From Escherichia coli (GTDB lineage: Bacteria; Pseudomonadota; Gammaproteobacteria; Enterobacterales; Enterobacteriaceae): a stretch of DNA of 64,000 bases. The notes beneath the pieces were generated by a model that was given only the letters and a program-made list of their open reading frames with translations, was not told the DNA's origin and did no database searches. The stretch is from assembly GCF_046105845.1 (NCBI RefSeq), contig NZ_CP151004.1; one strand, given 5' to 3'. Position numbers and translations under genes: made by a program. Positions 2,727 through 57,246 of this stretch are shown here, piece after piece; within the stretch, counting starts at the first letter, position 1; each line of letters begins with the position of its first letter.

Positions 2727-2737
2727 GGAGTTTGTCG

Positions 2738-3706
2738 ATGACGATGCCAACGAATCAATGCCCGTGGCGGATGCAGGTTCATCACATTACGCAAGAAACG
2801 CCGGATGTATGGACGATTTCCCTGATTTGCCACGATTACTACCCATATCGCGCCGGGCAATATGCACTGGTCAGCGTGCGTAACTCAGCGGAAACGCTGC
2901 GTGCTTACACCATTTCCTCCACGCCAGGCGTGAGTGAATACATCACCCTGACTGTGCGGCGGATTGATGACGGAGTCGGCTCCCAGTGGCTGACGCGCGA
3001 TGTAAAACGCGGTGATTATCTCTGGCTTTCGGACGCGATGGGGGAATTTACCTGCGACGATAAAGCAGAAGATAAATTCCTGTTGCTGGCGGCAGGCTGC
3101 GGCGTCACGCCGATTATGTCGATGCGTCGCTGGCTGGCGAAGAACCGTCCGCAGGCCGATGTGCAGGTGATCTACAACGTGCGTTCGCCGCAGGATGTTA
3201 TTTTCGCCGATGAGTGGCGTAACTATCCGGTGACGCTGGTGGCAGAAAATAACGTTACCGAAGGCTTTATCGCTGGTCGTCTCACTCGCGAACTGCTGGC
3301 AGGTGTCCCTGACTTAACTTCACGTACCGTGATGACCTGCGGCCCGGCTCCGTATATGGATTGGGTAGAGCAGGAAGTGAAAGCGCTCGGCGTGACGCGT
3401 TTCTTTAAAGAGAAATTCTTCACCCCAGTAGCGGAAGCGGCGACCAGCGGTCTGAAATTCACCAAACTGCAACCGGCACGAGAATTTTACGCCCCGTTTG
3501 GCACCACGCTACTGGAGGCGCTGGAAAGCAATAACGTTCCGGTTGTCGCCGCCTGCCGTGCAGGTGTTTGCGGCTGCTGTAAGACGAAAGTGGTTTCCGG
3601 TGAATATACGGTGAGCAGCACAATGACGCTGACCGACGCCGAAATCGCTGAAGGTTACGTGCTGGCCTGCTCCTGCCATCCGCAGGGAGATTTGGTTCTC
3701 GCATAA
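2738..3706 (+). CDS. hcr: NADH oxidoreductase for Hcp (FAD/NAD-binding plus C-terminal 2Fe-2S ferredoxin domain)
   Basis: Immediately downstream of hcp; C-terminal CRAGVCGCC...C ferredoxin-type motif. Confidence 0.9.
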   Translation: MTMPTNQCPWRMQVHHITQETPDVWTISLICHDYYPYRAGQYALVSVRNSAETLRAYTISSTPGVSEYITLTVRRIDDGVGSQWLTRDVKRGDYLWLSDAMGEFTCDDKAEDKFLLLAAGCGVTPIMSMRRWLAKNRPQADVQVIYNVRSPQDVIFADEWRNYPVTLVAENNVTEGFIAGRLTRELLAGVPDLTSRTVMTCGPAPYMDWVEQEVKALGVTRFFKEKFFTPVAEAATSGLKFTKLQPAREFYAPFGTTLLEALESNNVPVVAACRAGVCGCCKTKVVSGEYTVSSTMTLTDAEIAEGYVLACSCHPQGDLVLA

Positions 3707-27443: not shown

Positions 27444-29129
27444 GTGAATATAAACGTCGCCGAATTGTTAAATGGGAATTACATTCTGTTATTATTTGTG
27501 GTCCTCGCGCTTGGGCTATGTCTCGGAAAGTTACGACTTGGTTCGATCCAACTGGGTAATTCCATTGGCGTTTTAGTCGTATCGCTGTTATTAGGCCAAC
27601 AACATTTCAGCATTAACACCGACGCGCTTAATCTTGGCTTTATGCTGTTTATTTTCTGCGTCGGGGTCGAAGCCGGACCGAACTTTTTTTCCATTTTTTT
27701 TCGCGATGGGAAAAATTATCTAATGTTAGCACTGGTGATGGTTGGCAGTGCGCTGGTCATCGCCTTAGGGTTAGGTAAGCTGTTTGGCTGGGATATTGGC
27801 CTGACGGCCGGTATGTTAGCAGGATCTATGACGTCAACACCGGTTCTGGTCGGTGCTGGCGATACACTGCGTCATTCCGGCATGGAAAGCAGGCAGCTCT
27901 CACTGGCACTGGATAATCTGAGCCTCGGGTATGCCTTAACCTATTTAATCGGTCTGGTGAGTTTGATTGTTGGTGCGCGTTACTTGCCGAAATTGCAGCA
28001 TCAGGACTTACAGACCAGCGCCCAGCAAATCGCCCGCGAACGTGGCCTGGACACAGATGCCAACCGTAAGGTTTATTTGCCGGTGATCCGCGCCTACCGC
28101 GTCGGCCCGGAGCTGGTAGCCTGGACCGACGGCAAAAATCTGCGTGAACTGGGTATTTATCGACAAACCGGCTGCTACATTGAACGTATTCGACGTAACG
28201 GGATTCTGGCAAATCCAGACGGTGATGCCGTGCTACAAATGGGCGATGAAATAGCGTTGGTAGGCTACCCCGACGCCCACGCCCGACTCGATCCCAGCTT
28301 CCGTAACGGCAAAGAAGTTTTCGATCGTGACCTTCTCGACATGCGTATCGTCACTGAAGAAGTGGTCGTTAAAAACCATAACGCTGTTGGCAAACGCCTG
28401 GCACAACTGAAGTTGACCGATCACGGTTGCTTCCTTAACCGCGTCATTCGTAGCCAGATTGAGATGCCGATAGATGACAACGTCGTGCTTAACAAAGGTG
28501 ACGTTTTACAAGTCAGCGGCGATGCCCGTCGCGTAAAAACCATCGCCGATCGCATCGGCTTTATCTCGATTCACAGCCAGGTCACTGACCTGCTGGCATT
28601 CTGCGCCTTCTTTGTTATTGGGCTGATGATCGGGATGATCACCTTCCAGTTCAGCACATTCAGTTTCGGCATGGGGAACGCTGCCGGGTTGTTATTCGCC
28701 GGAATTATGCTGGGCTTTATGCGCGCTAACCACCCGACCTTCGGTTACATTCCGCAGGGTGCATTAAGCATGGTGAAAGAGTTCGGCTTAATGGTGTTTA
28801 TGGCAGGCGTTGGTCTAAGCGCCGGTAGCGGTATTAATAACGGCCTGGGCGCGATTGGCGGTCAGATGTTGATTGCCGGATTGATTGTCAGTCTTGTGCC
28901 AGTGGTTATCTGTTTCTTGTTCGGTGCTTATGTATTGCGAATGAACCGCGCACTGTTGTTCGGCGCAATGATGGGCGCACGCACCTGCGCGCCGGCAATG
29001 GAGATCATCAGTGATACAGCTCGCAGTAATATCCCGGCGCTGGGCTATGCGGGCACCTACGCAATCGCCAACGTCCTGCTGACGCTGGCAGGGACAATCA
29101 TCGTCATGGTATGGCCAGGATTAGGATAA
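27444..29129 (+). CDS. ybjL: Putative transporter YbjL (AAE family, two TrkA-C domains)
   Basis: 561-aa membrane protein with central soluble region. Confidence 0.88.
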
Positions 29130-29172
29130 AACTGAAGTTGCCCTGAAAATGAAATTTTTTTGCACAACCGCA

Positions 29173-29200
29173 GAACTTTTCCGCAGGGCATCAGTCTTAA
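29173..29200 (+). promoter_or_regulatory. Putative sigma-E promoter of rybB
   Basis: GAACTT (-35-like) about 16 nt upstream of tcttaa (-10-like), ending just before the rybB 5' end; RybB is a known sigma-E regulon member. Confidence 0.55.
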
Positions 29201-29205
29201 TTAGT

Positions 29206-29284
29206 GCCACTGCTTTTCTTTGATGTCCCCATTTTGTGGAGCCCATCAACCCCGCCATTTCGGTTCAAGGTTGGTGGGTTTTTT
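29206..29284 (+). ncRNA. rybB: RybB small regulatory RNA (Hfq-dependent, represses omp mRNAs)
   Basis: Sequence gccactgcttttctttgatgtcccc...ggttggtgggtttttt matches RybB as I recall it, with terminal hairpin plus U-tract; lies in the ybjL-rcdA intergenic region as expected. Confidence 0.85.
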
Positions 29285-29303
29285 GTTATCTAAAACTTAT
29301 CTA

Positions 29304-29840
29304 CTACCCTGCAACCCTCTCAACCATCCTCAAAATCTCCTCGCGCGATAGCGGCTTACGGTCGGTGACAAAATGCAGCGTCATCCCCTCAATAAACGCA
29401 TCAAGCGCGCGGGCGGTTCCGGGTTCAAACCATTGTTCGAGCGTTTGCTGACTGCGCTGCATCCAGTTTTGCATTACCGTTTTTAATAGCGGTTTTCGGC
29501 TAGCCAGCGCGTAGAGCTGGTACATCAGCTCCATGTTATCCGGCGTTGCAACCTGTGAGCTGTATATCATATCGGTGATAGCCTGGCATGCGCCCGTAGC
29601 ATCACTAACATCGCTAAAAAATGCCTGATATTGCCGGGACATGATCTCAGTAAAACTGCTGAACGCCTCAAGCAACAACTCATCAATTCCTGAAAAATAG
29701 TAGGTCATCGACCCCAACGGTACCCCGGCAAGGGTAGCAATTTTGCGGTGCGTAACAGCATGTATTCCATAAAGTTTCACCGCCTCCAGCGTGGCCTGGA
29801 TAATTTTTTCTCGCCGTTGCGGATCGTTAGCGCGACGCAT
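29304..29840 (-). CDS. rcdA: TetR-family transcriptional regulator RcdA (YbjK)
   Basis: N-terminal TetR HTH; start trimmed to [12 protein letters not shown]. Confidence 0.85.
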
Positions 29841-29923
29841 GTCATTTCCTCTCTCTGCAATTGTGTACAAATGTACACAACCTTGCTAATGTTGTCTTCC
29901 CTCTTCTTATTTTGACGTGATCT

Positions 29924-31132
29924 ATGACCGTAAATTCTTCACGTAATGCATTGAAACGCCGAACCTGGGCGCTGTTTATGTTCTTCTTTTTGCCGGGCCT
30001 GTTAATGGCGTCCTGGGCAACCCGTACGCCTGCTATCCGCGATATTCTTTCTGTTTCGATCGCTGAAATGGGCGGTGTTCTCTTTGGTCTGTCGATCGGT
30101 TCGATGAGCGGTATTCTCTGCTCGGCGTGGTTAGTGAAACGCTTTGGGACACGTAATGTCATCCTGGTCACGATGTCCTGCGCATTGATCGGGATGATGA
30201 TATTAAGTCTGGCACTCTGGCTGACATCGCCCCTGCTCTTTGCCGTTGGTCTCGGCGTCTTTGGGGCAAGTTTTGGTTCTGCGGAAGTGGCGATAAACGT
30301 TGAAGGTGCTGCCGTTGAGCGAGAAATGAATAAGACGGTTTTGCCGATGATGCACGGTTTTTATAGCCTGGGCACGCTGGCAGGCGCTGGTGTCGGGATG
30401 GCACTGACGGCCTTTGGCGTTCCGGCAACAGTGCACATTTTATTGGCGGCGCTGGTAGGCATCGCGCCTATTTATATCGCCATTCAGGCAATCCCTGACG
30501 GTACGGGCAAAAATGCTGCCGATGGCACCCAGCATGGTGAAAAAGGCGTACCTTTTTATCGGGATATCCAGTTGCTGCTGATTGGTGTTGTGGTGCTGGC
30601 GATGGCCTTTGCCGAAGGTTCTGCCAACGACTGGTTACCCTTATTAATGGTTGACGGTCACGGTTTTAGCCCTACTTCCGGCTCGCTGATTTATGCCGGT
30701 TTTACCCTGGGGATGACTGTTGGACGCTTTACCGGCGGTTGGTTCATCGACCGTTACAGTCGCGTTGCCGTGGTTCGGGCCAGTGCACTAATGGGAGCGT
30801 TGGGTATTGGGCTGATTATTTTTGTCGATAGCGCCTGGGTCGCTGGGGTGTCTGTTGTACTTTGGGGACTGGGTGCCTCGCTGGGCTTCCCACTGACCAT
30901 TTCTGCCGCCAGCGATACCGGCCCCGATGCACCGACCCGCGTCAGCGTGGTAGCAACGACCGGTTATCTGGCTTTCCTCGTCGGGCCGCCGCTGCTGGGC
31001 TATCTCGGCGAACATTATGGATTACGTAGTGCAATGCTGGTTGTACTGGCGCTGGTTATTCTCGCGGCTATTGTCGCGAAAGCCGTCGCCAAACCCGATA
31101 CCAAAACGCAGACGGCGATGGAGAATAGTTGA
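29924..31132 (+). CDS. ybjJ: MFS transporter YbjJ
   Basis: 402-aa 12-TM type ORF. Confidence 0.85.
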
Positions 31133-31947
31133 TGAGCATTAAATTAATTGCGGTAGACATGGATGGTACTTTCTTAAGCGATCAAAAAACCTATAACCGT
31201 GAGCGGTTTATGGCTCAGTATCAGCAAATGAAAGCACAAGGCATTCGCTTTGTGGTCGCCAGCGGGAATCAATATTATCAGTTGATCTCTTTCTTCCCTG
31301 AAATTGCTAATGAAATTGCCTTTGTGGCTGAAAACGGCGGCTGGGTAGTGAGCGAAGGCAAAGATGTTTTTAATGGCGAGCTGTCGAAGGATGCGTTTGC
31401 TACTGTCGTGGAACATTTGCTGACGCGCCCGGAAGTGGAAATTATTGCCTGCGGAAAAAATAGTGCCTATACACTCAAAAAATATGACGATGCCATGAAA
31501 ACGGTGGCGGAAATGTATTATCACCGTCTGGAATACGTCGATAACTTTGACAACTTAGAAGATATCTTCTTTAAGTTTGGCCTGAATCTTTCCGATGAAC
31601 TGATTCCACAAGTACAAAAAGCATTACATGAGGCCATCGGCGATATTATGGTGCCGGTCCACACCGGCAACGGCAGCATCGATCTGATTATCCCCGGCGT
31701 ACATAAAGCCAATGGCCTTCGCCAACTGCAGAAATTATGGGGAATAGACGACAGCGAAGTGGTGGTCTTTGGCGATGGCGGTAACGATATTGAGATGCTG
31801 CGTCAGGCTGGCTTTAGTTTTGCAATGGAAAATGCCGGCAGCGCGGTCGTCGCAGCGGCAAAATACCGGGCAGGCTCCAATAACCGTGAAGGCGTACTGG
31901 ATGTGATCGATAAAGTTCTTAAACACGAAGCGCCATTTAACCAATAA
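31132..31947 (+). CDS. ybjI: HAD-superfamily (Cof-type) sugar/FMN phosphatase YbjI
   Basis: DMDGTF HAD motif I; strong paralogy to ybiV at 57247. Confidence 0.88.
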   Translation: MSIKLIAVDMDGTFLSDQKTYNRERFMAQYQQMKAQGIRFVVASGNQYYQLISFFPEIANEIAFVAENGGWVVSEGKDVFNGELSKDAFATVVEHLLTRPEVEIIACGKNSAYTLKKYDDAMKTVAEMYYHRLEYVDNFDNLEDIFFKFGLNLSDELIPQVQKALHEAIGDIMVPVHTGNGSIDLIIPGVHKANGLRQLQKLWGIDDSEVVVFGDGGNDIEMLRQAGFSFAMENAGSAVVAAAKYRAGSNNREGVLDVIDKVLKHEAPFNQ

Positions 31948-46313: not shown

Positions 46314-47852
46314 TTATTGCAAATCCGCGTCTTCAAAGCTGAAGCCGGTGTCTGGCATGATCCAAAAACCGGTCAGGTTTTTACTGTGTGCCGACACCAG
46401 TTTTTCTACCACTAGCGGGATCCACGGCGACTCTTGCCAGATGATATCCTGCGCCGCCTTATATAAACGGGTCTTTTCTGCCGGATCATTAGTTTTCAGT
46501 GCCTGAGCCAGGAAGTCATCCACCTGTTTATTGCTGTAAAACGCGGTATTAAACAGCGTCGGTGGCCAGTTCTGCGATGCAAACAGCGGCGATAGAGCCC
46601 AGTCAGCTTCGCCGGTTGAAGCCGACCAGCCAGTGTAGAACATCCGCACGCCGCTCTCTTTTTGCCCTTTACCTTCAACTTCTGCCGCCCGCTGTCCGGC
46701 ATCCATCGCAGTCACCTGGGCTTTAATCCCGACCTGCGCTAACTGCTGCTGGGTAAATTGCAGCACTTTCTGCGCGGTGCTGTGGTTATGTGACGACCAC
46801 AGCGTGGTACTGAAACCGTTGGGATATCCCGCCTCTTTCAGTAATTCGCGCGCTTTCACTGGATCGTAAGGCCACGGTTTATAACTTTGCGCGTAGGCGA
46901 TACTCGGCGGTACCACACCAGTAGCTGGCTTTGCATAGCCCGCGAAGGCTACTTTCACCAGCGCCGGGCGGTTAATGGCGTAATTCAGCGCCTCACGGAC
47001 CTTCGGGTTATCGAACGGCTTTTGCGTCACGTTCATACTGATATAACGCTGCATAATTGACGGACTGGCCATCAACTCGATATTTTTGTTTTTCTCCAGC
47101 AGTGCGGCCTGCTCGTAGGGAATGGGGAAAGCAAACTGCGCTTCACCGGTTTGCAGCATTGCCGCGCGGGTGTTGTTATCCGCCACCGGACGCCAGGTTA
47201 TGCTGTCCAGTTTGGGCAATCCTGGCTGCCAGTAAGCCGCGAATTTTTTCACCTTCACAAAATCGGTCTGATTCCAGGTATCCAGTTCATACGGCCCGGT
47301 TCCCACTGGATGAAAACCAATCTCCTTGCCATATTTTTCCAGCGCTGCCGGCGAAATCATCGCGGTCGCCGGATGGGCAAGAATATTAATAAACGCTGAG
47401 AACGGCTGTTTGAGGGTAATCTTTACCGTTGTTGGATCGATCGCTTCCGTTTTGGCAATATTCTTATACAGGTTGTAGCGTTTAAGATGATTCGCCGGAT
47501 CGCTGGCCCGGTCCAGATTCGCTTTTACCGCCGCTGCGTTGAAGTCGGTGCCATCCTGGAATTTAATTCCTTCCCGCAATTTCACGGTGTAAGTAAGGCC
47601 GTCATCGGAAACGGTATAACTCTCCGCCAGCACGTTTTTCAGTTTCATCTCTTTATCGAGACCGAACAGCCCCTGGTAAAACGATTTCGCTACGGCCTGA
47701 GATAACGTGTCATTCGCGTCATAGGGATCGAGCGTGGTGAAGTTCGATCCTACCGCCACCACCACATCTTTGGCAGCGAATGCACAAGATGCCATCAACG
47801 CTGTCGCAATGCCCAGCGCCACTAACCCACTACGGTGTACAGCTCTTGCCAT
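46314..47852 (-). CDS. gsiB: Glutathione-binding periplasmic protein
   Basis: Start trimmed to [21 protein letters not shown] signal peptide (ORF track adds 89 codons). Confidence 0.9.
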
Positions 47853-47871
47853 TTTATTCTCCGCCTGAATG

Positions 47872-49743
47872 TTATCTACGCATGAATGCGTATTCTGATT
47901 GTGGTTGTGCGACGTAATGCCCCGGCCCGACGCATTGCAACGAGACAGCTGCAACCTCTTCGCCACGCAGATGAATATTGCTGGGAAGATCGTCCGACAG
48001 CAGTACACGCTGCGGTCGTTGTCGGGACGGTTCCGCGACCGGAACCGCCGCCAGTAATTTACGCGTATAAGGATGCTGCGGGTTTTCGAAGACCGCGCGC
48101 CGTGGACCAATTTCAACAATTTGTCCGAGATACATCACCGCCACACGATGACTAATCCGCTCTACCACGGCCATATCGTGGGAGATAAACAGATACGCAA
48201 TGCCGAAATCACGCTGGAGATCGAGCAACAAGTTGATAATCTGCCCGCGAATAGAAACATCCAGCGCCGAGACGGCTTCATCGGCAATGATCACTTTTGG
48301 ATTCAATGCCAACGCGCGAGCAATGCAGATGCGCTGGCGCTGACCGCCGGAAAACTCATGCGGGTAACGCCAGGCATGTTCAGGTAACAGGCCCACGCGC
48401 TCCAGCAACCACGCAACGCGTGCAGCCGCTTCTTTACCTGGCAATAAACCGTGTACGCGCAGCGGTTCGATAATCGAATCACCGATGGTCTGACGTGGGT
48501 CCAGCGAAGCGTAAGGGTCCTGAAAAATAAACTGAATATCGCGGCGCAATGCCTGAAGTTTACCGGGTGACAAGGTATCGATTCGCTGACCGTTAAAGAT
48601 AATTTCGCCGCCCTGCGATTCGACCAGGCGCAGCAACGCCCGCCCGGTAGTGGATTTACCGCTGCCAGACTCGCCCACCAGCGATAGCGTTTCGCCAGGC
48701 CAGAGATCAAAACTGACTTTCTCAACGGCATGCACTTCCCGCGTTACGCGATTCAACAAACCGCTGCGCAAAGGGAAACGGGTGACCAGATTACGCACCC
48801 GTAAAACAGGTTCGCCATCCACCACCGTTTTCTGCTCGATGGGTGGTTCCTGTTTCGCTGGATGTTCAAGCGATATCAATGGGAAACGTCGGGGATAATC
48901 TAACCCTTTCATCGCACCAAGTTGCGGAACAGCAGCTAACAGCGCACGGGTGTAAGGATGTTGCGGTGCATGAAAAATCTGTTCGACGCTACCCGTTTCC
49001 ACCGCCTCGCCCTGATACATCACCAGTACCCGATCGGCAATCTCTGCCACCACGCCCATATCGTGAGTGATAAAGATAACGCCCATCGACATCTCTTTTT
49101 GCAATACTTTGATTAATTGCAGGATCTGCGCCTGAATAGTGACATCCAGCGCGGTGGTTGGCTCATCGGCAATCAGCACCGCCGGGCGGCATGACAGTGC
49201 CATCGCAATCATCACTCGCTGGCGCATCCCGCCAGAGAGTTGATGCGGATAACGTGAAAGAATGGTTTGTGCCTCCGGAATGCGTACCTGATCCAGCATC
49301 CGCTTCGCCTCGACCATTGCTTCTTCACGACTGGCGTTTTGATGCAGACGAATAGATTCAGCAATCTGTTCACCCACAGTAAATACCGGGTTCAGCGATG
49401 TCATCGGCTCCTGAAATATCATCGCCATATCCGCACCGCGCACATGGCGCATTTGTGCAGCGCTCTGCTCGCTAAGTTCAATCACTTCGCGACTGCGCCG
49501 CCGCAACAGCATTTGATCGCACTGCACTAAACCGCCCGCCTGTTCCAACAGGCGCATCAATGCCAGCGCAGTCACTGACTTACCGGAGCCGGATTCGCCA
49601 ACAATTGCCAGCGTCTCACCACGTTGCAGGCTAAAAGAGAGATTGCGGACCGCAGCTATTTTCTGCTGGTCCTGCATAAAGGCAATATTCAGATTTTCAA
49701 CCGCCAGCACATCACCGGCATCAAGTTCATCACTGTGTGGCAA
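47872..49743 (-). CDS. gsiA: Glutathione ABC transporter ATP-binding protein (tandem ABC domains)
   Basis: Two Walker A motifs (GESGSGKS twice) and two LSGG signatures; annotated length about 623 aa implies a non-ATG start near 49743, so the start is approximate. Confidence 0.85.
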
Positions 49744-53633: not shown

Positions 53634-53763
53634 AACCATCCTCAAAATGTACTTTTTGTCTGAATGTAGACTATCACGGGAAAACTCTCTGAACAGTTGA
53701 CGCACATCAATCTAACTTTCATTCGAAAGTATTTTAATGTTTGAACGAAACAGAGAGGCAACT

Positions 53764-54663
53764 ATGATTTTCAATATTCAGCGCTACTCGACCCATGATG
53801 GCCCCGGTATCCGCACGGTCGTATTTCTTAAAGGCTGTTCGCTGGGCTGCCGCTGGTGTCAGAACCCGGAAAGCCGCGCCCGCACGCAGGATCTGCTGTA
53901 TGACGCACGTCTGTGTCTGGAAGGCTGCGAGCTGTGCGCTAAGGCCGCGCCGGAAGTGATTGAGCGCGCGCTGAATGGCTTGCTTATTCATCGGGAAAAG
54001 TTAACCCCGGAGCATCTGACAGCGTTAACCGACTGCTGCCCGACACAGGCGTTAACCGTATGTGGTGAAGTGAAAAGCGTTGAGGAGATAATGAAGACCG
54101 TTCTGCGCGATAAACCGTTTTACGATCGCAGCGGCGGCGGCTTAACGCTTTCTGGCGGTGAACCCTTTATGCAGCCGGAAATGGCGATGGCGCTACTGCA
54201 AGCCAGCCACGAGGCAGGCATTCATACTGCGGTAGAAACCTGTCTGCATGTGCCGTGGAAATATATCGCCCCTTCTCTGCCCTATATCGATCTGTTTCTT
54301 GCCGATTTAAAACACGTTGCCGACGCACCGTTTAAACAGTGGACCGACGGTAATGCCGCCAGGGTGCTGGATAACCTGAAAAAACTCGCCGCAGCGGGCA
54401 AAAAAATCATTATCCGCGTGCCGCTGATTCAGGGCTTTAATGCCGACGAAACCTCTGTAAAAGCCATTACCGATTTTGCCGCCGACGAGCTGCACGTTGG
54501 CGAAATTCATTTCCTGCCCTACCACACGCTGGGCATCAACAAATATCACTTACTTAATCTGCCCTATGACGCCCCGGAAAAACCGCTTGATGCGCCAGAA
54601 CTGCTCGACTTTGCCCAGCAGTATGCCTGCCAGAAAGGGTTAACCGCGACCTTACGAGGATAA
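53764..54663 (+). CDS. pflE: Glycyl-radical enzyme activating protein (radical SAM) PflE/YbiY
   Basis: CxxxCxxC motif (CSLGCRWC) plus extra Cys clusters; start could instead be 53737. Confidence 0.85.
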
Positions 54664-54668
54664 CAACC

Positions 54669-57101
54669 ATGACCACACTGAAACTGGATACGCTCAGCGA
54701 CCGCATTAAAGCGCACAAAAATGCGCTGGTGCATATTGTGAAACCGCCGGTCTGTACCGAGCGCGCGCAGCACTATACTGAGATGTATCAACAACATCTC
54801 GATAAGCCGATCCCGGTACGTCGCGCGCTGGCGCTGGCGCATCACCTGGCGAATCGCACCATCTGGATCAAGCACGATGAGTTGATCATTGGCAACCAGG
54901 CAAGCGAAGTTCGCGCCGCGCCGATCTTCCCGGAATATACCGTCTCCTGGATCGAAAAAGAGATTGATGATCTGGCGGATCGTCCGGGTGCTGGTTTTGC
55001 GGTGAGCGAAGAGAACAAACGTGTTCTGCATGAAGTGTGCCCTTGGTGGCGCGGTCAGACGGTACAGGATCGCTGCTACGGCATGTTTACCGATGAGCAA
55101 AAAGGTCTGCTGGCGACCGGAATCATTAAAGCGGAAGGCAATATGACCTCCGGCGATGCGCACCTGGCGGTGAATTTCCCGCTACTGCTGGAAAAAGGTC
55201 TTGATGGTCTGCGCGAGAAAGTAGCGGAACGTCGCTCGCGCATCAACCTGACGGTGCTGGAAGATTTGCACGGCGAGCAGTTCCTGAAAGCGATTGATAT
55301 CGTGCTGGTGGCAGTCAGTGAACACATTGAACGTTTCGCTGCCCTGGCGCGTGAAATGGCAGCCACTGAAACCCGCGAAAGCCGTCGCGATGAACTGCTG
55401 GCGATAGCAGAAAACTGCGATCTTATCGCCCACCAGCCGCCGCAGACTTTCTGGCAGGCGCTGCAACTGTGTTACTTCATCCAGTTGATTTTGCAGATCG
55501 AATCTAACGGTCACTCGGTATCGTTTGGTCGTATGGACCAGTATCTCTACCCGTACTATCGCCGCGACGTTGAACTGAACCAGACACTGGATCGCGAACA
55601 TGCCATCGAGATGCTGCATAGCTGCTGGTTGAAACTGCTGGAAGTGAACAAAATCCGCTCCGGCTCGCACTCGAAAGCCTCTGCGGGAAGTCCGCTGTAT
55701 CAGAACGTCACCATTGGCGGACAAAATCTGGTTGATGGTCAACCAATGGACGCGGTGAATCCACTCTCTTACGCGATCCTCGAATCCTGCGGTCGCCTGC
55801 GTTCCACTCAGCCTAACCTCAGCGTGCGTTACCATGCAGGAATGAGCAACGATTTCCTCGACGCCTGCGTACAGGTGATCCGTTGCGGCTTCGGGATGCC
55901 GGCGTTCAACAACGACGAAATCGTGATCCCGGAATTTATTAAACTCGGTATTGAACCGCAGGACGCTTACGACTATGCAGCGATTGGTTGTATCGAAACC
56001 GCCGTCGGTGGCAAATGGGGCTATCGCTGTACCGGCATGAGCTTTATCAACTTCGCCCGTGTGATGCTGGCGGCGCTGGAAGGCGGTCGTGATGCCACCA
56101 GCGGCAAAGTGTTCCTGCCACAAGAAAAAGCGTTGTCGGCAGGTAACTTCAACAACTTCGATGAAGTGATGGACGCGTGGGATACGCAAATCCGTTACTA
56201 CACGCGTAAATCAATCGAAATCGAATATGTCGTTGACACCATGCTGGAAGAGAACGTGCACGATATTCTCTGCTCGGCGCTGGTGGATGACTGTATTGAG
56301 CGAGCGAAAAGCATCAAGCAAGGCGGCGCGAAATATGACTGGGTTTCTGGCCTGCAGGTTGGCATTGCCAACCTCGGCAACAGCCTGGCGGCAGTGAAGA
56401 AACTGGTATTTGAACAGGGCGCGATTGGTCAGCAACAACTGGCTGCCGCACTGGCGGATGACTTCGATGGCCTGACTCATGAGCAACTGCGTCAGCGGCT
56501 GATTAACGGTGCGCCGAAGTACGGCAACGACGATGATACCGTCGATACGCTGCTGGCTCGCGCTTATCAGACCTATATCGACGAACTGAAACAGTACCAT
56601 AACCCACGCTACGGTCGTGGTCCGGTTGGCGGCAACTATTACGCGGGTACGTCGTCTATCTCCGCTAACGTACCGTTTGGCGCGCAGACTATGGCAACAC
56701 CGGACGGGCGCAAAGCCCACACCCCGCTGGCAGAAGGCGCAAGCCCGGCTTCCGGTACTGATCATCTTGGCCCTACTGCGGTCATTGGCTCAGTGGGTAA
56801 ACTGCCTACGGCCGCGATTCTCGGCGGCGTGCTGCTCAACCAGAAACTGAATCCAGCAACGCTGGAGAACGAATCTGACAAGCAGAAACTGATGATCCTG
56901 CTACGCACCTTCTTTGAAGTGCATAAAGGCTGGCATATTCAGTACAACATCGTTTCCCGCGAAACGCTGCTGGAAGCGAAAAAACATCCGGATCAGTACC
57001 GCGATCTGGTAGTGCGTGTCGCGGGTTATTCCGCCTTCTTCACTGCGCTCTCTCCAGACGCACAGGACGATATCATCGCCCGTACTGAACATATGCTGTA
57101 A
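54669..57101 (+). CDS. pflF: Glycyl-radical enzyme (pyruvate formate-lyase homolog) PflF/YbiW
   Basis: 810 aa; C-terminal glycyl-radical motif ([10 protein letters not shown]). Confidence 0.9.
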
Positions 57102-57246
57102 CTCTTCCGCCCGGCGGCCACCGTCGCCGGGCCAAATCATTCACATCATCAATTTCAGCCTCGCTTTCATTCGAAATATAATTTGTGCTCTGCGTCACAT
57201 TGTTATTACACTGTTACGGTTTCATTTTCGAGCCAGGAGCACACCT

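Follow-up and report, generated by a model that had tools for sequence, protein, structure and literature searches.

The genes pflF and ybiV lie in tandem on the + strand of the 64,000-nucleotide (nt) stretch of Escherichia coli DNA analysed here (the window). The upstream gene, pflF (named ybiW in RefSeq), encodes a glycyl-radical enzyme and occupies positions 54669 to 57101, as given by the listing of open reading frames (ORFs) and RefSeq. The downstream gene, ybiV (supH), encodes a 271-residue Cof-type HAD-IIB sugar phosphatase (positions 57247 to 58062; RefSeq, Protein Data Bank (PDB) and Pfam), and a 145-nt spacer separates the two. The ORF listing of the window also contains a longer, mechanically called ORF of 348 residues, which starts at GTG 57016 on the + strand and whose stop codon ends at 58062. 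This ORF carries the ybiV frame 231 nt (77 codons, positions 57016 to 57246) ahead of ATG 57247. The nearest in-frame stop codon 5′ of this extension is TAG 57010, and GTG 57016 is the sole canonical start codon within it. The extension overlaps pflF by 86 nt, including the pflF stop codon, such that the last 86 nt of pflF underlie its first 29 codons, which are read in the +1 frame with respect to pflF. Counted from the first base of the GTG, the pflF stop codon ends 85 nt downstream, and the ORF coordinates thereby confirm the original prediction that the 348-residue ORF begins 85 nt inside pflF in another frame. That prediction also held that the extension is almost certainly not translated, a judgement supported by the start-site, Shine–Dalgarno (SD), codon-usage and ortholog evidence presented here.

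RefSeq annotates ybiV as an 816-nt gene encoding 271 residues, and its first base corresponds to window position 57247 both in a K-12-type genome and in strain K_EC180. The K_EC180 sequence is identical to the window over the entire extension, yet ybiV is annotated there from the equivalent of 57247. The PDB chains of E. coli K-12 YbiV (1rlm, 1rlo, 1rlt and 2hf2) align to ORF residues 78 to 348, beginning at residue 78, and these residues align end to end with the solved 271-residue YbiV chain (E = 1.7e-178). The Pfam Hydrolase_3 profile (PF08282) spans ORF residues 83 to 336 over its full length (profile positions 1–255 of 255, E = 1.6e-53), and thus begins 5 residues after ATG 57247. The 271-residue YbiV scores 182.5 bits against this profile, for which the curated cut-off is 20.9, and belongs to the family, whereas the 77-residue extension alone gave no Pfam match at E ≤ 1. 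These matches agree with the expectation that no HAD-like sequence precedes MSVKV, the N terminus encoded from 57247. HAD motif I (DxDGT, here DMDGT) occupies residues 9 to 13 of the 271-residue protein, with the nucleophile Asp at residue 9; the start therefore cannot lie downstream of ATG 57247, and the next methionine, residue 10, is ruled out. On the other side, the frame of K-12-like E. coli comprises 37 open codons upstream of the ATG and meets a TAA 38 codons upstream, with no in-frame start codon before that TAA, and the characterised enzyme therefore cannot be longer. ATG 57247 is thus the only sensible start on both sides. Consistent with this, the exact 271-residue YbiV is found in at least 1000 contigs in a collection of about 15 billion predicted proteins, from which the exact 348-residue sequence is absent.

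A comparison with known proteins places the window's YbiV close to the K-12 enzyme (SupH; 1RLM/1RLO/1RLT and 2HF2), with which it shares the start codon, the SD sequence and the flanking genes ybiW and ybiU (RefSeq, K-12-type). The two proteins differ by few substitutions, and the C terminus reads ...DNIAPFNS here and ...DNTYPFNS in K-12 YbiV; 1rlm has Ala at position 2. At the DNA level, K-12 has TAA at the equivalent of 57133 and hence no long mechanical ORF, whereas the window has CAA. The paralog ybjI (positions 31132 to 31947, + strand; located by tblastn and the ORF listing) shares with YbiV an N terminus of the form MS[VI]K[VL]I..DMDGTF. The YbjI and YbiV sequences align from their first residues onwards (tblastn, residues 1–270 aligned, 52.6% identity), in keeping with the earlier statement that ybjI starts at the equivalent methionine. 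The mechanical ORF of ybjI is only one codon longer than the gene (TTG 31129, then ATG 31132), and the ybjI start overlaps the ybjJ stop codon (TGATG), unlike that of ybiV.

The bases directly ahead of ATG 57247 read gagccAGGAGcacacctATG and contain the SD sequence AGGAG at 57235 to 57239 (+ strand), 7 nt before the ATG. The 20 nt preceding this ATG pair with the 3′ end of 16S rRNA at −6.6 kcal/mol, which ranks in the top 3.1% of the 2,800 ATG, GTG and TTG triplets on the + strand of the window. A ribosome-binding site had been anticipated ahead of 57247, and it is present; the GGAGCA cited for it, however, lies at 57236 to 57241 and not at 57233 to 57238. The 20 nt before GTG 57016 yield −3.0 kcal/mol, at the 38th percentile of the same set, an ordinary value that does not mark a ribosome-binding site.

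Codon usage likewise separates the extension from the genes on either side. Using codon log-odds scores (log2) trained on 38 long ORFs of the window, in-frame versus off-frame, we obtained −0.30 per codon for the extension (−0.47 for the part overlapping pflF and −0.20 for the intergenic part), as compared with +0.52 for ybiV and +0.64 for the pflF 3′ end. Eighty-eight 77-codon windows of real genes scored +0.47 on average (s.d. 0.14, minimum +0.11), and the codon usage of the extension lies more than 5 s.d. below them. A tblastn match of extension residues 5 to 35 to window positions 3153 to 3245 on the − strand (E = 0.002) was rejected as a chance low-complexity match: it is Ser/Arg/Pro-rich and antisense to a 324-residue reductase gene (2732 to 3706).

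We then compared the locus with its orthologs, for which one genome per species was scanned, yielding 43 full-length orthologous loci from other species (Escherichia, Citrobacter, Salmonella, Klebsiella, Raoultella, Enterobacter, Lelliottia, Trabulsiella, Pluralibacter and others). An ATG stands at the aligned start in 43 of 43 loci, where the protein begins M[ST][VI][KN]V[IV]VTDM, and a GGAG-containing SD sequence, mostly CCAGGAGC, precedes it by 4–8 nt in every one. Upstream of the ATG, the frame is open for only 5–48 codons in 42 of the 43 loci (10–48 in other Escherichia and 5–32 in other genera), usually without a start codon. The exception, Citrobacter koseri, has 80 open codons; pflF was not detected in its upstream flank, and its additional open codons gave no tblastn match to the extension in the window. 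The original prediction had named ortholog alignment as its check, and the alignment reveals that the N-terminal extension is not conserved among orthologs.

Within the 86-nt overlap, the pflF frame (its last 28 residues) retains 93–100% amino acid identity across genera, whereas the extension frame retains 36–86%, gains stop codons and loses the GTG, with GCG, GAG or GGG in its place in many orthologs. Substitutions in the overlap thus respect the pflF frame only. Furthermore, tblastn matches of the extension to the orthologous loci jump between frames, which is conservation at the DNA level without a reading frame.

The distance between the two genes is also variable. The pflF–ybiV spacer ranges from 115 to 870 nt across the loci (for example, 115, 118, 121, 133, 144, 145 and 167 nt), and in other Escherichia it differs by 1-nt and 12-nt indels, some not divisible by three; there is therefore no fixed frame relation between pflF and ybiV. 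This variation bears on the idea that programmed +1 frameshifting near the 3′ end of pflF produces a PflF–YbiV fusion, for which only the geometry speaks, in that the open stretch of the ybiV frame reaches back into pflF, to 85 nt before its end. Against it, spacers of 115, 121, 133, 144, 145 and 167 nt do not keep the frame relation, K-12 has a stop codon in the frame, and the pflF C terminus is conserved up to its own stop codon. Reading the overlap by eye, we noted no slippery motif, and an Rfam search of positions 56900–57400 gave no match at E ≤ 1. We regard frameshifting as vanishingly improbable, and the earlier warning that the longer ORF should not be mistaken for a fusion holds.

The frame is open in the window because CAA at 57133 to 57135 (+ strand, by alignment) replaces the usual TAA of K-12-type E. 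coli, Escherichia albertii and other Escherichia, and because the frame contains no other in-frame stop codon. Of 5,426 complete E. coli genomes, 48 (about 1%) carry the exact 121-mer spanning positions 57080–57200, and 5,219 records fall in the 90–95% identity band over this 121-mer; over 57080–57200 the K-12-type sequence with TAA is similarly divergent from the window. Among the 60 records listed, which include the 48 identical ones, ybiW is the sole annotation under 57080–57200, and the NCBI annotation pipeline (PGAP) never extends ybiV in them.

It could be argued that, in the lineage carrying the CAA allele, ribosomes start at GTG 57016 on a read-through pflF–ybiV mRNA and synthesize a 348-residue YbiV with a new 77-residue N terminus. 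No stop codon interrupts the frame, its first codon is a permitted start, the CAA allele is unchanged in the 48 complete genomes, and the cluster has been named an operon (PMC8464067), a read-through transcript of which would contain GTG 57016. However, this codon lacks an SD sequence and lies inside pflF, which is translated in a different frame; a −22 kcal/mol hairpin falls within the supposed coding stretch, the codon usage of which is non-coding; the GTG and the open frame are lost in close relatives; and the 77 residues would precede a HAD fold with its nucleophile Asp at residue 9. The long form is also never called by PGAP in the 60 records listed and has no exact counterpart among the 15 billion proteins. 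We therefore consider a long YbiV made in this way very unlikely. Rare initiation at GTG 57016, which has the open frame and nothing further in its favour, is likewise very improbable, and it is extremely doubtful that occasional initiation there has given rise to a lineage-specific de novo 77-residue extension, that is, a young coding sequence derived from a promoter region.

Ordinary over-extension by longest-ORF calling has parallels nearby. The probability of 78 open codons is 0.028 by base composition and 0.010–0.017 in the off-frames of the window's real genes, placing this frame in the upper tail for non-coding frames (P = 0.01–0.03). In a sample of 45 intact annotated coding sequences (CDSs) with RefSeq starts, taken from 50 kb of the near-identical K_EC180, mechanical extension reached at least 77 codons in two cases (ybiV, 77; gsiB, 89) and at least 50 codons in three. 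The length of the extension is within chance, and one such case per window is expected. The ybiV extension resembles ordinary over-extension in its open upstream start, the lack of a ribosome-binding site, the lack of conservation and the non-coding codon usage, and gsiB (89 codons) and a phage integrase gene (52 codons) in the neighbouring 50 kb are over-extended in a similar manner. It differs in running back into the preceding gene and in being confined to about 1% of complete E. coli genomes. As another gauge of over-extension, we tried the best-SD start within 130 codons of each long ORF, and discarded it because it often picks internal codons (19 of 52 ORFs appeared 'extended' by at least 50 codons).

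The 145-nt spacer contains, in order, a hairpin, a palindrome, a CRP site, a conserved −10-like block and the SD sequence. The GC-rich hairpin (positions 57109 to 57132, + strand) begins 8 nt after the pflF stop codon and folds as RNA into a 10-bp stem with a 4-nt loop (−22.1 kcal/mol). Among Escherichia, sequence differences fall in the loop and leave the stem intact; a hairpin of some kind occupies the equivalent place in most orthologs, and a few of these have U-rich tails. In the window, the tail CAAAUCAUUC contains 3 U in 10 and no U-tract, and the hairpin is not a canonical intrinsic terminator. A terminator scan of 56900–57400 returned no sites, because the hairpin lacks a T-run. The hairpin may be terminator-like or a stabiliser of the 3′ end.

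The CRP site TGTGCTCTGCGTCACA (positions 57184 to 57199, + strand) matches the consensus TGTGA-N6-TCACA at 9 of 10 half-site bases. It reads TGTGC-TCTGCG-TCACA; comparison across genera shows conservation of both half-sites and variation at the centre. Published evidence for CRP binding in vitro includes a Footprint-seq preprint (PMC12871828), which lists the reverse complement, aaTGTGAcgcagaGCACAaat, for ybiV and estimates its Kd at 3.6 nM; the 16-bp site at 57184–57199 is identical to the K-12 site given there. ybiV is also among the CRP targets identified by genomic SELEX (PMC3105977). Immediately downstream, the block TTGTTATTACACTGT (positions 57200 to 57214, + strand) is conserved across genera, with the pattern TTGTTATTA(C/G)A(C/A)TGT across loci.

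The palindrome CTTTC-ATTC-GAAAT occupies positions 57164 to 57177 (+ strand). In 37 of 42 orthologous loci its 12-nt core is located 79–84 nt upstream of the ybiV start codon, where 0.0007 occurrences per locus would be expected. Two further copies, each with one mismatch, are present in the window: one at 53716–53729, immediately ahead of ybiY in the stretch that ybiY shares with the divergently oriented fsa gene, and one at 58187–58200, 14 nt before the ybiU ATG. Allowing one mismatch, CTTTC-(ATTC/GAAT)-GAAA[G/T] occurs three times, each time in a promoter-proximal position. A previous study of the DeoR-type regulator YciT reported ChIP-exo peaks upstream of ybiV, ybiY and fsaA together with a palindromic motif, found that yciT deletion alters expression, and referred to the cluster as 'operon ybiUVWY' (Gao et al. 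2021, PMC8464067). Two of the copies found here sit in the ybiV and ybiY/fsaA regions, as do the published peaks, and the third precedes ybiU. The palindrome CTTTC-N4-GAAA[G/T] is probably the YciT operator, an equation with the published motif that we infer.

The regulatory elements of the spacer keep a fixed distance to the ybiV ATG, whereas their distance to pflF floats, marking ATG 57247 as the anchor of the gene. These features also bear on the notion of a separate small protein encoded here, whether by the ybiV frame or by one of two ORFs on the − strand (56901 to 57140, 79 residues; 57073 to 57198, 41 residues). Such ORFs do exist mechanically in the ORF listing. However, the ybiV frame has no canonical start codon between 57102 and 57246 and gave no Pfam match, spacers within Escherichia differ by indels of 1 and 12 nt and, between genera, range from 115 to 870 nt in length, and the conserved blocks of the spacer are palindromic protein-binding sites that are not codon-patterned. 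We regard a small protein encoded here as extremely improbable.

Collectively, these observations lead us to regard it as almost certain that the 348-residue ORF is an ORF-calling artefact and that YbiV is translated from ATG 57247 by way of AGGAG at 57235–57239. The 231 nt ahead of this ATG consist of the out-of-frame 3′-terminal 86 nt of pflF/ybiW and the 145-nt spacer, which is regulatory DNA with its hairpin, palindrome, CRP site, −10-like block and SD sequence. What the extension reflects is the loss, in one lineage, of a stop codon within non-coding DNA; it is not a fusion, an isoform or an overlapping gene. The gene start, the CRP site and the regulation by YciT are already known, and nothing here is novel. 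The result is one of annotation hygiene only and advances no open question: the ybiV gene start belongs at 57247, and neither a long YbiV isoform nor a pflF–ybiV fusion should be reported on the basis of the 348-residue ORF. The DNA beneath the extension is more aptly regarded as pflF/ybiW 3′-end sequence followed by a compact, conserved and partly documented control region.

A scan of positions 56900–57400 for consensus promoters returned no sites, the ybiV promoter being unlike the consensus. Within the conserved block downstream of the CRP site, the hexamer TACACT (57207–57212; TAGAAT in other genera) could be a candidate −10 element. As an observation on spacing, taking TACACT or TAGAAT as the −10 element would centre the CRP site near −28, and setting CRP at −41.5 would pair it with a poor −10 element.

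The palindrome CTTTC-(ATTC/GAAT)-GAAA[G/T] occurs three times in the window with at most one mismatch, at 53716-53729 (+), 57164-57177 (+; the ybiV copy) and 58187-58200 (-), and each copy lies immediately 5′ of one of the ybiY-ybiW-ybiV-ybiU cluster genes. Its distance from the ybiV ATG is constant (79-84 nt) in 37 of 42 enterobacterial loci, and 25 loci carry a second copy at most 290 nt downstream of the ybiV stop codon. The 4-nt centre is found in either orientation, differing by genus. The palindrome is probably the operator of the DeoR-type regulator YciT, for which ChIP-exo peaks have been reported (PMC8464067).

A near-consensus CRP site (57184-57199) lies 55 nt upstream of the ybiV ATG and is identical in sequence to a published K-12 CRP site with a Kd of 3.6 nM (PMC12871828). 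Measured from the conserved TACACT/TAGAAT block, a candidate −10 hexamer of ybiV, the centre of this site would be at about −28, which would not be a classical activating position.

Upstream of these elements, a 10-bp GC hairpin (57109-57132; −22.1 kcal/mol) begins 8 nt 3′ of the pflF stop codon and lacks a U-tract. Its stem is conserved within Escherichia and its loop is variable, and many other genera have different GC-rich hairpins at this position. U-rich tails follow the hairpins downstream of pflF in a few loci. Some Citrobacter hairpins at the same position contain a CCGGATAAG-type sequence, which we take to be REP-like.

Two antisense ORFs, of 79 residues (56901-57140, -) and 41 residues (57073-57198, -), span the pflF 3′ end and the pflF–ybiV spacer region, and the spacer beneath them carries indels among Escherichia. 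A tblastn search with the 77-residue extension, the ORF stretch preceding the ybiV ATG, returned a 45% match over 31 residues (E 0.002) at 3153-3245 (-), antisense to a 324-residue reductase gene (2732-3706). This match is Ser/Arg/Pro-rich and was judged to be a chance low-complexity match.

Other mechanically called ORFs in the window are also too long. The pflE/ybiY ORF starts at ATG 53737 (308 residues), just 3′ of the palindrome copy at 53716-53729, whereas the RefSeq ybiY start lies nine codons downstream, at window position 53764 (299 residues, MIFNIQRY...); the stretch 53737-53763 is another small over-extension. The gsiB ORF (46317-48122, -) encodes 601 residues, compared with 512 for the annotated gene in the near-identical E. 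coli genome K_EC180, an over-extension of 89 codons that exceeds that of ybiV in length and is equally trivial in kind. The ybjI ORF has 272 rather than 271 residues owing to a TTG one codon upstream of the start, and the ybjJ stop codon and the ybjI start codon overlap in TGATG (31129-31134).

The window derives from an E. coli of an uncommon lineage, as seen at 56700-58100 and 27444-29873. Among 5,426 complete genomes, the best match to 56700-58100 was K_EC180 (98.6% over 1.4 kb), and for most genomes the alignment breaks off at query position 1341 of 1401, about 20 nt short of the ybiV stop codon. Between ybjL and rcdA, K_EC180 carries phage genes (tail, baseplate, integrase and ogr/Delta-like) that are absent from the window. 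The ybjI gene is intact in the window but has a frameshift in the K_EC180 annotation.
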